A stretch of 31,802 bases of DNA from an archaeon (GTDB taxonomy: Archaea > EX4484-52 > B79-G9), in assembly GCA_043813875.1 (NCBI GenBank), contig JBDRKP010000012.1:1-31802 (forward strand), read 5' to 3'. Shown in pieces: positions 18,001 through 21,000 of the stretch. How positions within the stretch are numbered: position 1 is the stretch's first letter; every line of letters begins with the position of its first letter. The position numbers were made by a program.

Positions 18001-21000
18001 AAAACTTTATCCTAAAGGAAATATCTACAAAGGATTAAGCCCAAATAGTTCTACGACAGGACATCACAAATATGAGAAAATTCAACGAATCATTCGGCTT
18101 ATAGAACAAATCTCAACAAATATAAAACTACTTTTCTTATAAAAGGACTATGTCAAAAAAAGAAAGCAGCACAATAGATACAACAACAGACATAGAACCG
18201 GAAAAAATCTCAATAGAAACAGACTCTGAATGGCTGATAAAATCCACATCAAAAACAGACCCAAAATACGGCTGCAGACCTGAAGACAGGAACATAGAAA
18301 CCCACATCAACAACGGACTGATAATTCTTGACAAACCCAAAGGCCCGACATCCCACCAGGTCGCTGCATGGGTTCGCGACATCTTTTGCCTCAATAAAGC
18401 AGGCCATTCAGGCACACTCGACCCTGGAGTGACCGGAGTGCTCCCGATTGTGCTTGGAAACGCAACAAAGATAATACCGGCACTCATCCGCGGAAAGAAA
18501 GAATACATCTGCCTCATGCAGCTCCACAACGAAGTCCCGCACAAAAAGATACTTGAGACCGCAAAATCATTCACAGGAAACATTGAACAGATGCCTCCGG
18601 TAAAATCCGCAGTAAAAAGACAGCTGAGGATAAGAGAGATATACAGCCTGGAAATACTTGAGATTGAAGGCACAGACGTCCTTTTCAGGGCAGAAGTGGA
18701 GGCAGGCACATACATCAGAACACTCTGCGTCGACTTCGGGAAGAAGCTGGGAATCGGCGCTCACATGCAGGAACTGAGACGAACAAAAGCAAGCTCATTG
18801 CTTGAAAAAGATGCAGTAACATTGCAAGACATAAAAGACGCATGGGAATTCTACAAAGAAAAAAAAGACGAGAAATACCTCCGAGACATAATAAGACCAT
18901 TAGAAAGAGGAGTAAAGCATCTTCAAAAAATCATGATCAAAGACTCAGCAGTATCCGCAATATGCCACGGCGCTCCCCTCCACATAGGCGGCATCGTAAG
19001 ATTTACAAAAGACATAAAAACAAACGACATAATAGCAATAATGACCTTAAAAGACGAACTCGTAGCCCTTGCAAAATCGACAATGGACTCAACTGCAATA
19101 CACGACAGCACGCAAGGCACAGCAGCAGAAGTGACAAGAGTGATAATGAAAGAAGACACATATCCAAGAACATGGTAAGAACATAATAAGGAGGAAATAA
19201 CATGCCCGTCGACAAGAAACTAATGGAGATACTTGCATGCCCAAAATGCAAAGGAGACGTAAAAGAAGAGAGCATGTTCATAACATGCAATAAATGCAAG
19301 CTTGCATACCCGATACTGGACTCTGACATCCCCGACATGCTGATTGAAGATGCATGGCCCCTGGAAAAAGCAAAAAAATCAAAATTCAGGCACACGATAA
19401 AAATATAAAAAAAAGCACCAAAACAAACCGGACAACAAAGTGTCGAGGTCGCCTAGCTCGGTATGGCGCCGGTCTTGAATCATAGAAGCGAAAAAACAAA
19501 GCGCTTCTATCCATGCAAACCGGTGTCCGCAAGGACTCGGGAGTTCAAATCTCTCCCTCGACGCTATTCCAAACAATAACAGGTGACTTAAACGCAAGTT
19601 TAAGTCGCCCTGATGATCAACCTTTCTGAAGGTTGGTTCGAATCTCTCCCTCGACGCTATTCCAAACAATAACAGGTGACTTAAACGCAAGTTTAAGTCG
19701 CACAATTACAAAAACAAAAACCAGTGACCTAAAGAGAAGTCAACAAAAGCAGTGTGCTTGAGCGAAGCGAAACACACCTGATGCTCAAGCTTTCAGAAGC
19801 TTGTGATCAACCTTTCTGAAGGTTGCCCCAAAACAACCTTTATAAAGTTAACGGCACATAAAACAGTACTGTAGTATACAATGGTATCTACACACAAAAA
19901 CTACATTTGAAAATCTCAAATTGGTTGCTCAATCCTGCATCAGAGATTAAGCATAAAATCAGTCCAATTGAATTCTAAAACCATTAGAATCATAAGGACA
20001 TCAGCACAAATTAGGTGATATTTTGGCAATATTCGAAAACATAGTACGAGTCATGAACACAGACTTAAACGGCGACAAAAGCATAGCCTATGCACTGACA
20101 AGCATCAAGGGAGTCAACTACAACCTGGCAAAAGCAATTATATATCGCGCTAAAATAGACGGCACCAAAAAACTAAAAGACCTCAGTGAAAAAGACATAT
20201 CTGAAATTGAAAAGATCATAGAGGATCCGATAGAATCAAAAATACCCTCATGGTTACTAAATCGCAACAAGGACTACAAAACTGGTGAGAACCTGCACAT
20301 AACAGGCACAGACATAACCATAACAGTCCGTGAAGACATAAATCGCCTAAGAAAAATCCGCTCCTATCGCGGCATCAGACATGAAAAAGGACTCCCAACA
20401 AGAGGCCAGAGAACACGATCATCCTTCAGGAAAGGAGCAAAAGTCGGCGTAGTCAAGAAAAAGAAATAATTATCCAACAAAATATAGGTGAAACATTTGG
20501 GAGACCCAAAAAAACAACACAAACACTATGACAGCGTGAAAAGACCGTGGGATAAAGACAGGATTCTGCTCGAAGAAAAGCTCGTCAAAAAATACGGAAT
20601 ACGCAGAAAAAAAGAGTTCAGAAAAGCAGAGACAATCCTAAGAAACCTAAGACAGCGCGCAAGAACACTCATAGGCACAAAGAACGAAAAAGAAGAATCA
20701 TTATTACTGAAAAAAGTATACGATATGGGATTCGCCAACAAAGATGCAACCATCGACACCATACTGGGATTGAAAATAGAATCCGTTCTCGACAGGCGCC
20801 TCCAGACCATGCTGCTAAAGCACAACCTTGCAAACACGCCACTACAGGCAAGACAATTCATCGCACACGGTCACATAACAGTGAACGGAATAAAAGCAAT
20901 ATCTCCAAGCTACACCGTAAAAATACACGAAGAAAACAACATCATCTTCAATCCAAACTCAAGCCTCAACCACACATTCAAGGCAGCTGAAAAAGAAGAG

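Follow-up and report, generated by a model that had tools for sequence, protein, structure and literature searches.

Hairpin units behind a tRNA-Ser gene

The window analysed here is a stretch of 31,802 nucleotides of archaeal DNA (lineage EX4484-52; contig JBDRKP010000012.1, assembly GCA_043813875.1). It carries, on the forward strand like all features of the window described below, a tRNA-Ser gene with an intron (19442..19563), which was recognised with the Rfam tRNA model (40.5 bits) and by eye and was missed by ARAGORN. The last 21 nt of this gene, from the T-loop onwards, open a direct repeat of 66 nt, in which positions 19543-19608 recur at 19636-19701 with one mismatch (A/G, base 5) and a spacing of 93 nt, as detected by repeat search and local alignment (65/66). 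An exact 61-bp repeat of the tRNA-Ser 3′ end and its trailer had been reported in a preliminary description of this DNA; that block, which starts at 19548, is present and extends to the length given here. The first copy (X, 19543..19608) comprises the tRNA T-loop, the 3′ strand of the acceptor stem, a trailer of 18-19 nt, and a 13-bp hairpin, which we call large hairpin A. The second copy (X′, 19636..19701) comprises a displaced tRNA 3′ end, the trailer, and a second hairpin A. Its T-loop reads GTTCGAATC, as it does in the five relatives seen. The duplicated block reaches through hairpin A, so that only a 27-nt module, made up of CCTGATGAT and the hairpin CAACCTTTCTGAAGGTTG, is unique between the two copies.

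Hairpin A (GTGACTTAAAC GCAA GTTTAAGTCGC plus an outer G-C pair; 19582..19609) is an inverted repeat supported by covariation over 42 copies. It is followed by the linker CTGATGAT (19610..19617), whose conserved core in alignments is C-U-R-A-U, and by a small hairpin S (CAACCTT TCTG AAGGTTG; 19618..19635), the last base of which is the exact junction to the second repeat copy. The RNA fold of the whole unit at 19582 has a free energy of -27.2 kcal/mol and a z-score of -5.96. Further downstream, the 5′ half of an A hairpin (GTGACCTAAAGAGAAG, 19724..19739) precedes a second unit, a layout that is also found on contig C80. This second unit consists of a large hairpin of type B (GTGTG CTTGAGCGAAGCGAAA CACAC; 19752..19777), which is supported by covariation over 21 copies, and of the linker CTGATGCT, the small hairpin CAAGCTTTCAGAAGCTTG, TGAT, and a second small hairpin CAACCTTTCTGAAGGTTG (19778..19825). 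The promoter-like box CAACCTTTATAAAG ahead of the rpS13 gene (19834..19847) lies outside the element. It resembles the 5′ half of S and is kept in the five relatives seen, with or without units. A third unit of the window (30671..30757) lies 208 nt behind a tRNA-Arg gene and 11 nt ahead of the next ATG, and is composed of an A-like 5′ half, a B hairpin (30706-30731), the linker TTGATGAT, and S (30740-30757).

A short public contig of one sequencing run spans positions 19493-19663 with 0 differences, indicating that the junction between the small hairpin and the second repeat copy is not peculiar to this assembly, although the run may be that of the source sample and its cover excludes the distal end of the second copy (19701/19702). 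No allele free of the repeat was found among the public DNA contigs compared, which are short and span only one junction. The spacer between tRNA-Ser and rpS13 holds no unit in three relatives, another insert in one, one unit in one, and two units here; at this locus, as at G005:C86, filled and empty spacers are too diverged for alignment.

Structure and conservation of the units

Units are about 60-80 nt long and encode no protein. Their order is constant: a large hairpin of 12-13 bp, an 8-nt single-stranded linker with a CURAU core, and one to three small hairpins of 7 bp with the consensus CAACCUU-UCWG-AAGGUUG. The large hairpin differs between lineages, and types A and B coexist in this genome. 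In type A, 98.7% of 796 cells are paired, 5/19 pairs show double changes, and a U-G pair is kept in 41/42 rows; in type B, the figures are 100% of 336 cells and 5/16 pairs. The rows of these alignments were chosen by sequence patterns, which inflates the percentages paired. The anatomy and the compensatory changes proposed in the preliminary description hold. RNAalifold, which had been said not to capture the large hairpin, recovers it on the 42-row alignment. Some copies have UUCG or GNRA loops, and stable loops of the GCGAAGC kind occur, one of them flipped to GCTTCGC.

Distribution in the genome and across lineages

Within the window, the 18-nt small hairpin was found four times at up to three mismatches, compared to no occurrence in 100 shuffles. 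A fuzzy scan of the genome detected 20 linker-plus-hairpin modules at 12 loci, and a covariance model (R1) produced 17 matches at E≤0.01. The earlier census had listed 16 units, 15 model matches, and 4-45 matches per relative; the family stands, with these counts revised and with 5 to 56 matches in each of the 7/7 other genomes of the genus. All 12 loci of this genome lie on the locally A-rich strand, as do 50/54 unit clusters, with none on the T-rich strand. Four units had been placed behind divergent genes, but since all 12 loci are on the A-rich strand, this placement is probably an effect of gene calling.

Only 3/12 loci lie directly behind a tRNA gene (tRNA-Ser on this contig and on C43, and a tRNA on C62). 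One more, the third unit of the window, follows tRNA-Arg at the distance given above, and the remaining loci are between protein genes. The label "tRNA-linked" therefore describes some units and is too narrow for most of them, and the association is incidental. Two further observations made at tRNA genes were confirmed: a degenerate repeat is present behind the C62 tRNA (34 nt, 28 identical), and a degenerate antisense unit, read by eye, lies in the tRNA-Val(GAC) intron on C63. Units are also found within housekeeping operons, such as between the genes of the acetolactate-synthase small subunit and ketol-acid reductoisomerase, or before an isopropylmalate dehydrogenase gene. One position is in a 5′ UTR.

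All eight genomes of the genus carry units (5, 7, 10, 17, 29, 31, 55, and 56), consistent with the genus-wide spread claimed before. One sister genus has a match in 0/4 genomes and another in 2/4, with one match each, while 13/42 genomes of the phylum have a match. Meanwhile, the 26-nt 3′ module is identical to the letter in MAGs labelled as Nanohalarchaeota, Altiarchaeales, and Thermoplasmatota. Identical copies occur at 18 loci of named MAGs and at 43 metagenome loci, next to unrelated large hairpins and in lineages of very different G+C content. At the archease locus, a unit lies 16 nt behind the stop codon in 8/8 genus genomes, suggesting that some sites are old and stable. As stated previously, the units match no Rfam family, either at the gathering threshold or at E≤10. 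The module had no match in viral contigs, and no RNA run is listed with this stretch. We found no publication with the module sequences, and none that describes the element among those on archaeal MITEs, CUGAUGA repeats, or archaeal REP/RAYT systems.

Insertion sites and flank duplications

Comparisons with empty sites provided insights into how units reach new positions. At G005:C93, an 81-nt unit is flanked by 33-nt repeats (X33-E81-X′33), while G001 and G000:C39 have a single X that runs straight into the same downstream flank. On contig C78 of this genome, the arrangement is X69-E-X′61, and G006 has one X there. Judged by their sequences, both are real insertions, with target duplications of 33 nt and about 65 nt. 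In addition, a site that is empty in G000:C58 is filled at the orthologous position in G005 and G002.

Flank repeats of at least 30 nt, anchored at the last base of S, accompany 13/207 terminal hairpins, compared to 0/207 in a reversed-sequence control, and those of at least 12 nt accompany 31/207, compared to 6/207. In 10/11 cases studied in detail, X′ begins 0 nt after S, and the duplications of that set are 19-104 nt long. Over all copies, duplications measure between about 5 and 110 nt; many are short, at about 5-11 nt, while others have 26-110 nt. The stretch between the repeats measures from 27 nt, at the tRNA-Ser locus, to more than 100 nt. Such duplications also affect the 3′ ends of at least four unrelated protein genes as well as a promoter plus start codon. 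Complete AT-rich copies of 170-190 nt are flanked by short T-rich duplications; among AT-rich metagenome copies, 9/15 have identical T-rich direct repeats of 7-11 nt at both ends, in which the letters other than T co-vary. Units are also found nested within the loops of one another, accompanied by short duplications (e.g., AAGCGAAGC on C48), and locus L060 holds a tandem array of the form (X-E)x3+X.

Together, the empty sites, target duplications, nesting, and swings in copy number favour a mobile element. We consider it probable that the region behind tRNA-Ser comprises two adjacent copies of a small, strand-specific, interspersed, non-autonomous mobile element. As part of that reading, the 66-nt repeat is likely to be a long target duplication that runs through hairpin A. 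One feature is not predicted by a model of a complete element plus a target-site duplication: in three cases the right edge of the repeat falls within the unit, namely after hairpin A at the tRNA-Ser locus, within the loop of hairpin A on C43, and 2 nt past the start of the hairpin at L060.

Search for a mobilising enzyme

No enzyme family tracked unit copy number among those searched (RVT_1, Y1_Tnp, the TnpB zinc ribbon, Cas1, DDE_Tnp_1, and tyrosine recombinases), although the genomes are 59-96% complete and the absence of an enzyme is therefore weak evidence. In profile searches, the reverse transcriptase family RVT_1 was absent from this genome and present in 2/16 family genomes, with no unit adjoining. 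Y1_Tnp was detected in 3/16 family genomes, all of the genus (3/8), and was not found in the 55- and 56-copy genomes; here it is a fragment at a contig end. The TnpB zinc-ribbon family (PF07282) was absent from this genome, Cas1 from 5/5 genomes, and DDE_Tnp_1 from the 55-copy genome, while tyrosine recombinase genes were present in 5/5 genus genomes tested. Among the 105 ORFs that flank units in other lineages, Pfam recognised housekeeping genes and one DDE_3, and no reverse transcriptase or integrase.

Alternative explanations

The repeat edges inside units are what would be expected if the flank repeats, instead of being products of insertion, were scars left by recombination or by replication errors that a stable hairpin provokes. 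Such scars might arise if the template switched at the end of S to a position further upstream. Alternatively, homology-facilitated illegitimate recombination might paste a donor allele, consisting of a gene end and a unit, before the resident gene end. The archease locus also speaks for scars. Its unit is ancestral, yet X′ occurs in only 3/8 genomes, and its different lengths there (42, about 64, and about 100 nt) point to independent events. In one of these genomes, G007, X′ has the allele of the relatives, and X differs by an in-frame 3-nt indel. By hand count, 12/18 differences between X and X′ are at third codon positions; this bias may reflect allelic recombination, or a promoter constraint on X′, rather than simple duplication in place. 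Scars, however, explain neither the arrival of units at new loci or in other phyla nor the short T-rich duplications of the complete 170-190-nt copies. At G005:C93 and C78, moreover, the filled site equals the empty site plus the unit plus one extra X, as in an insertion, and a simple slip-back would duplicate the unit as well, which was seen only in the L060 and L070 arrays. We thus regard scars as an unlikely origin of the repeats, albeit one that deserves serious consideration.

Another explanation is that units are a selected cassette for intercistronic or 3′-end punctuation that was not spread by transposition. The CURAU linker would be cut, or would end transcription, so that the RNA upstream would end in a protective 3′ hairpin and the RNA downstream would begin with a 5′ hairpin. 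The sense-strand orientation of the copies (12/12 here; 50/54 clusters) fits such a signal, as does the presence of units inside housekeeping operons, in a 5′ UTR, and downstream of tRNA genes. The conserved U-G pair and the UUCG and GNRA loops of some copies suit RNA, and the conservation of the 26-mer regardless of G+C content points in the same direction. Nevertheless, close relatives do without the unit at orthologous sites with no visible harm, the copy number swings from 5 to 56 in the genus and is 0 in a sister genus, and units nest and form junk-like clusters. As the sole explanation, an RNA signal is rather improbable. It is compatible with mobility, as in bacterial REP elements, and competes with it only in that exclusive form; a putative additional role of the mobile element as an RNA signal is possible.

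Units might also derive from single-stranded DNA transposition of the IS200/IS605 type, like REP/REPIN or PATE elements. A Y1 (HUH) transposase would then recognise the hairpins on one DNA strand, cut next to them, and move the unit as a circular single-stranded DNA. The hairpins described here are strand-specific and have a conserved T-G mismatch, the copies are strand-biased, the GCGAAGC-kind loops include the flipped form, and Y1_Tnp is present in three genomes of the genus, including the fragment in this one. Furthermore, a circle in which the end of S is linked to a position further upstream, and which integrates by homology, would explain right edges inside the unit. However, IS200/IS605 and REP elements are not known to make target duplications, and target duplications are present here. 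The Y1 gene of this genome is followed by a hairpin with no relation to the units, the genomes richest in units yielded no Y1_Tnp, and the TnpB zinc ribbon was not found here. An origin of this type is accordingly doubtful, and we would not expect it to hold.

Duplication of a tRNA 3′ end from the T-loop is a classic mark of integrase-driven integration, and the tRNA-Ser repeat could be read as the attL/attR pair of a tRNA-targeting element that was later almost wholly deleted. The repeat does start in the T-loop, and tyrosine recombinases are encoded in the genus. This is nonetheless very improbable: only 27 nt separate the repeats, which run 45 nt past the tRNA and are identical in both copies there, the same pattern occurs at the unrelated protein genes and the promoter mentioned above, and no integrase gene lies nearby, the flanking genes being those of ribosomal proteins.

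Lastly, the units can hardly be catalytic or guide RNAs, such as a hammerhead-like ribozyme or a box C/D (K-turn) RNA: CUGAUGA equals a hammerhead core strand and contains the C-box-like UGAUGA, and about half of the small hairpins have CUGA in their loop, yet the linker conserves only C-U-R-A-U. The consensus copy agrees with the hammerhead core CUGANGA, but over the 42 A-type and 21 B-type copies the last three bases of the linker vary (GAT, CGC, AGT, AAT, GCT). The unit shares the helix-CUGAUGA-helix order with hammerhead ribozymes, and has no GAAA strand, no stem III, no cleavage triplet, and no match to the family in Rfam, in line with the earlier rejection of a hammerhead. Downstream of S, copies have unrelated sequences (GGGGAAGG, TTTTTT, AAATAC, GTTCGA, and others), and no stem III partner precedes the large hairpin. 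As for box C/D RNAs, the candidate D box varies (CUGA, CAGA, UAGA, UACA, UAUA) and sits in the loop and stem of the covarying hairpin S. Where a K-turn would need its terminal stem, the 5′ flank is taken up by the 3′ strand of the large hairpin, and where a 10-12-nt guide to rRNA or tRNA would be expected, between the boxes, lies the 5′ strand of S, which pairs within S itself. Mimicry of, or antisense pairing with, rRNA was likewise rejected; the rRNA and RNase P RNA of the window contain no complement of the linker and no S-like site.

A putative mechanism of spread

Our best reading is that this mobile element represents a new type that lacks terminal inverted repeats and makes target duplications of variable length, and for which no candidate enzyme was found. 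We propose that a new copy would be joined to its target exactly at the 3′ end of the last small hairpin, the 5′ side being less sharply defined, and that a target stretch of variable length would be duplicated on both sides. Movement may proceed via a single-stranded intermediate of RNA or DNA, the 3′ end of which is attached first, as in target-primed copying, with the joining step performed by an enzyme that was not found in these genomes. In compact genomes, insertions at gene ends would persist where the duplication is long: the upstream duplicate would complete the upstream gene, and the downstream duplicate would keep the promoter or start of the neighbour. Because all copies are on the sense strand, we infer that the element is co-transcribed and folds into two hairpins, perhaps protecting or marking RNA ends.

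These findings have implications for the understanding of small uncultured archaea, whose genomes of 1-2 Mb are thought to be poor in repetitive DNA. Here, genomes of 1.2-1.3 Mb hold as many as 55 to 56 copies of an element without any protein of its own, and the same 26 letters are common to lineages labelled as different phyla. The putative mode of insertion, which combines ends that are not inverted, an exact 3′ junction, and long target duplications, is undescribed for prokaryotic mini-elements. Its duplications are long enough to restore the end of a tRNA, the C-terminus of a protein, or a promoter with its start codon. Were the enzyme found, it would represent a novel means by which archaea mobilise DNA or RNA-derived DNA. 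If the element also shapes RNA ends, it would provide archaea with a ready-made module of operon punctuation. On the practical side, assemblies break at the duplicated gene ends, which can also lead gene and tRNA callers astray. The element serves as a marker, both in strain typing and in following gene flow between archaea of sediment and of groundwater.

Comparison with known systems

Integron attC sites are imperfect hairpins of 57-141 nt behind a cassette ORF, with an R″/R′ core pair (RYYYAAC ... GTTRRRY). The units resemble attC in their position behind ORFs and in the bulged base of hairpin A; their only CAAC...GTTG pair is that of S, which is much shorter than an attC hairpin. Further conceivable readings, considered by inspection, are dif-like recombinase core sites, DNA-uptake sequences, and promoter mimicry by S, the last suggested by its likeness to CAACCTTTATAAAG. 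With tRNA-targeting integrative elements, the units share a tRNA 3′ repeat from the T-loop that leaves the gene intact; unlike them, they have no integrase and no cargo, are not site-specific, and occur also at protein genes.

Bacterial REP, REPIN, and BIME elements, with their RAYT (Y1) transposases, are also short extragenic palindromes in many copies, often clustered, behind genes and in operons. Like the units, they share transcripts with adjacent genes, are non-coding, and evolve as hairpins. The 20 modules at 12 loci here, and up to 56 units per genus genome, agree with the many-copy palindromes that characterise REPs. According to three papers, REPs have a GTAG or CGTC tag and flank a single-copy RAYT gene (PMC2817692, PMC3733652, PMC3116915). 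The units differ in having neither tag, no associated Y1 gene, and target duplications of 5-110 nt, in joining two different hairpins in a fixed order by a conserved linker, and in their archaeal hosts.

Prokaryotic MITEs are likewise small, non-coding, multi-copy, and intergenic, are flanked by target duplications, vary in presence between relatives, and nest. Here, however, there are no terminal inverted repeats; in complete copies inspected by eye, the 5′ end TAATWACAAAC... is not complementary to the 3′ end ...GAAGGTTG. Duplications vary in length (about 5 to 110 nt), copies occupy the sense strand only, and no parent insertion sequence shares their ends.

SINE retroposons of eukaryotes, which are copied by target-primed reverse transcription, offer a further parallel. 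No retroposon of this type is known in archaea, where promoters lie outside the transcript. A reverse transcriptase is also present in only 2/16 family genomes, and an RNA intermediate is putative for the units. What the two share is an exact 3′ end with a loose 5′ side, variable target duplications from the 3′ junction, a conserved 3′ module under different 5′ bodies, and tandem 3′ modules. It is tempting to speculate, although we would give the idea limited credence, that the units are the first retroposon-like (or otherwise 3′-end-anchored, copy-in) non-autonomous family of archaea. Its universal 26-nt 3′ module, CUGAUGAUCAACCUUUCWGAAGGUUG, would be read by a horizontally travelling or host enzyme, lineage-specific 5′ hairpins would ride along, and duplications of up to about 100 nt would let the element settle on gene ends.

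The tRNA-Ser locus and its genomic setting

The 3′ end of the intron-containing tRNA-Ser matched by Rfam at 19442-19563 forms the start of a direct repeat of 66 nt with one mismatch (19543-19608 and 19636-19701; 61 nt exact, spacing 93), which bears out the observation of a repeated tRNA 3′ end in the preliminary description. The repeat begins in the T-loop, and the repeated block consists of the final 21 nt of the tRNA, a trailer of 18-19 nt and the large hairpin A (13 bp, 19582-19609). The two copies are separated by 27 nt of unique DNA, namely the linker CCTGATGAT and the small hairpin S (CAACCTT-TCTG-AAGGTTG, 19618-19635). 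The folding energy of this unit is -27.2 kcal/mol (z -5.96). A second unit comprises half an A hairpin (19724-19739), a large hairpin B that is unlike A (19752-19777), and the linker CTGATGCT with two small hairpins (19786-19803 and 19808-19825), while the third unit of the window lies at 30671-30757. A short public contig, which may derive from the source sample itself, is identical to positions 19493-19663 (0 differences), and its coverage stops before the far end of the second repeat copy.

The source genome, of which the window is one contig, is an archaeal bin of 1.64 Mb in 90 contigs, 91.5% complete. AT skew ranges from 0.08 to 0.59 along the window, revealing a strong A-richness of one strand; it peaks at 0.59 per kb and is about 0.1 only over the rRNA genes. 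A/T skew predicted the coding strand better than longest-ORF calls did. Rfam detected an rRNA operon, RNase P RNA and six tRNAs, of which four have long introns (matches of 109-122 nt, including 19442-19563, 22446-22554 and 26484-26598), and ARAGORN in bacterial mode recovered just the two intronless ones. The operon (24897-30463) contains, in order, 16S, an intron-containing tRNA, 23S, RNase P RNA (29726-30081, starting only 58 nt past the end of 23S) and tRNA-Arg; Rfam found no 5S rRNA in the window.

Structure and distribution of the units

The structure of the unit is well supported for the given strand. Among 42 distinct A-type copies 98.7% of 796 cells were paired, and among 21 B-type copies, whose search pattern left the outer 5-mers free, all 336 were, percentages that are inflated by the selection of rows through sequence patterns. 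Double changes, which are unaffected by this selection, occurred in 5 of 19 pairs of A and 5 of 16 pairs of B. The loop-adjacent pair of A is C-G in 20 copies, G-C in 15 and A-U in four, and a U-G pair is retained in 41 of the 42 rows. RNAalifold recovered both hairpins and an extra pair closing hairpin A (A-U 30, U-A 5, G-C 2). Conservation of the linker is limited to C-U-R-A-U.

By fuzzy scan the source genome has 20 linker-plus-S modules, distributed over 12 loci. A covariance model of 26 positions gave 17 matches there and 5, 7, 10, 29, 31, 55 and 56 in the other seven genomes of the genus; one sister genus had matches in none of four genomes, another in two of four (one match each), and the phylum in 13 of 42. 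The Rfam search for the element returned no match and, as also described earlier, a degenerate unit read by eye lies antisense within the tRNA-Val(GAC) intron on contig C63.

Evidence for mobility

Comparison of related sites points to insertion, and the units probably represent a new type of non-autonomous mobile element. The spacer between tRNA-Ser and the promoter of rpS13 measures 48-115 nt and lacks a unit in three relatives; among other genomes it holds an unrelated 900-nt insert in one, a single unit in one, and two units in the source genome. At a locus of the relative G005 (contig C93), the 3′-terminal 33 nt of a gene (ending in TAA, plus one T) precede an 81-nt unit, a repeat of the 33 nt and the downstream flank; in the empty counterparts, in G001 and on contig C39 of the source genome, the gene end abuts that flank. 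On contig C78 of the source genome a block of 61-69 nt, made up of the final 33 nt of one gene, the entire spacer of about 33 nt and the ATG of the next gene, flanks a unit cluster on both sides. The orthologous block is single in G006, and the site is filled in G005, with an identical left junction.

For 207 terminal small hairpins, with both strands counted and reversed sequence as the control, we looked upstream for the sequence that starts at the base after S. It recurred over at least 30 nt in 13 cases (0 in the control) and over at least 12 nt in 31 (6 in the control), and the downstream copy began 0 nt past S in 10 of the 11 cases studied in detail. Nine of 15 AT-rich copies are abutted at both ends by identical T-rich direct repeats of 7 to 11 nt, whose odd letters co-vary (TTTTTGATT, TTTTTCATT, TTTTTATA, CTTTTTATTGT). 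Some units are nested in the loop of another and accompanied by short duplications, for example AAGCGAAGC on contig C48, and at locus L060 a block-unit pair occurs three times with a period of 145 nt, followed by a lone block.

Duplication of gene ends

The label "tRNA-linked" in the preliminary description proved too narrow: the duplication is not peculiar to tRNAs and also occurs at the ends of protein genes. Five protein-gene cases (L023, L030, L113, L064 and L068) have an upstream copy that terminates exactly at the stop codon; the upstream copy reaches 4 nt past it in L125, and ends at or past the tRNA end on contigs C12 (the window) and C62. Beyond the stop codon, the end of a convergent gene follows after 1-3 nt at the G005 locus, and the start of the next gene after 33-36 nt on C78. 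Because gene spacing is this tight, an insertion would be survivable only with a duplication spanning the boundary. The left copy would complete the upstream gene, as the upstream copy on C12 does for tRNA-Ser, and the right copy would preserve the end, promoter or start of the neighbour. We infer that the long duplications are those which selection lets through; short ones (5-11 nt) occur where space allows or within other units. The downstream copy on C12 retains the T-loop GTTCGAATC in the same spelling as in the five relatives seen.

Recombination between alleles as a possible alternative

Several features fit simple insertion poorly. The right edge of the repeat falls inside the unit, running through hairpin A on C12, 2 nt into the hairpin in L060 and, in a gapped alignment, into the A loop on C43, so that only the 3′ part of the unit is unique between the copies at these loci. 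At the archease locus (source genome C43:12587-13200; orthologues L086-L093) all eight genomes of the genus have a unit 16 nt past the stop codon of the gene; just three of them also carry the gene end a second time (42, about 64 and about 100 nt long), and these differing lengths indicate that the 3′ end was duplicated three independent times. Of 18 differences between upstream and downstream copies, 12 are at third codon positions by hand count, and at the archease locus of G007 the downstream copy is the allele of the relatives. Some repeats might thus be recombination joints between alleles, and recombination or template switching might explain part of the long repeats; we regard this as unlikely. 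On C78 the downstream copy overlaps the TATA-like box of the neighbour, which would constrain it. The internal edges could reflect a 5′-truncated copy resolved by homology with a resident unit or, alternatively, a circle joining the S end to an upstream point and integrated by homology.

At C43:13073-13099 the apex of an A hairpin changed from GCGAAGC to GCTTCGC with the stem unaltered, a loop inversion of the kind that template switching within a hairpin makes. Archease is a cofactor of the RNA ligase RtcB, which circularises RNA in archaea, and one relative carries RtcB on the same locus (both identified by Pfam); the link to the element is probably a coincidence.

Orientation and transcription

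The locally A-rich strand, taken here to be the coding strand, carries all 12 clusters of the source genome. Together with 40 loci of two relatives, 50 of 54 are on the A-rich strand, none on the T-rich one and four are ambiguous. The median distance is 98 nt from the upstream stop codon to the linker and 76 nt from the last S to the next start, some short values of the latter being artefacts of TTG inside S. The neighbours are ordinary genes, several units lie within biosynthetic operons, and at one locus the unit is preceded by a TATA-like box and followed by the Shine-Dalgarno sequence and the ATG that belong to the next gene. No RNA run was found that contains the stretch analysed here. 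Judging from this orientation and gene context, the element is almost certainly transcribed in the sense direction, and it is plausible that the transcribed hairpins protect or mark RNA ends.

The 5′ half of S (CAACCTTTCTGAAG, 19618-19631) differs by two letters from the conserved rpS13 promoter box (CAACCTTTATAAAG, 19834-19847), and some later hairpins of a unit have a loop with TTTTATAA or TTTTACAA; S might imitate or provide a TATA box. Between this promoter-like box and the rpS13 start, the leader (19850-19995) is conserved in all five relatives seen and contains nested inverted repeats (ATTGG...CCAAT around TTAATC...GATTAA, then ATTCTAA...TTAGAAT). It had no match in Rfam and may have a regulatory function for the operon of ribosomal proteins S13/S4/S11.

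The module beyond the genus and the copying route

An exact-pattern scan of species-representative genomes located 18 loci, in records titled Candidatus Nanohalarchaeota, Candidatus Altiarchaeales, Thermoplasmatota or "uncultured archaeon", and an exact 26-mer scan of metagenome contigs located 43. At all 18 and all 43, the module CTGATGATCAACCTTTCWGAAGGTTG lies directly 3′ of the 3′ strand of a hairpin that varies by lineage. In the Thermoplasmatota record this hairpin is rich in G+C and has a UUCG or GCA loop, the Altiarchaeales record has ATGTCAT...ATGGCAT, and still other types occur on AT-rich contigs. The latter carry a repeated unit of 170-190 nt that starts with TAATWACAAAC..., ends in ...GAAGGTTG and has no inverted ends. 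At L039:3-479, the ORF of a DDE_3 (IS630/Tc1-like) transposase ends about 20 nt before a 5′-truncated AT-rich copy; here the element was apparently the target of an insertion sequence. The module was absent from all viral contigs searched, and our literature search found no paper containing its sequences.

Searches for reverse transcriptase, Y1 transposase, the TnpB zinc ribbon, Cas1, DDE_Tnp_1 and tyrosine recombinases did not yield a mobilising enzyme, and none of these six families tracks unit copy number; a Y2 search, silent in the control genomes too, is uninformative. Completeness is 59-93% for all but a few genomes and mobile genes commonly escape binning, which makes this absence weak evidence. 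In locus L075 (G004:C32:6329-9883), two ORFs for hydrolases of the haloacid-dehalogenase type flank a 479-aa ORF on the opposite strand that has RVT_1 as its sole domain; no unit adjoins this ORF, which resembles an inserted retroelement or a reverse transcriptase with a defence role. At a contig end (source genome C84:2300-3339, L074) stands the C-terminal part of a Y1 transposase of the IS200 type, with a G+C-rich hairpin 3′ of it that is unrelated to the units; the strand composition of C84 is unlike the rest of the genome, and it may be a foreign or mis-binned piece.

For the copying mechanism we favour a single-stranded intermediate whose 3′ end is the point of attachment. A retroposon-like copying route is a doubtful candidate, and a single-strand DNA route of the Y1 type appears quite improbable. 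The best-supported description is of an element that is structured and strand-specific, lacks inverted ends, and combines an exact 3′ junction with variable target duplications able to rebuild gene ends.
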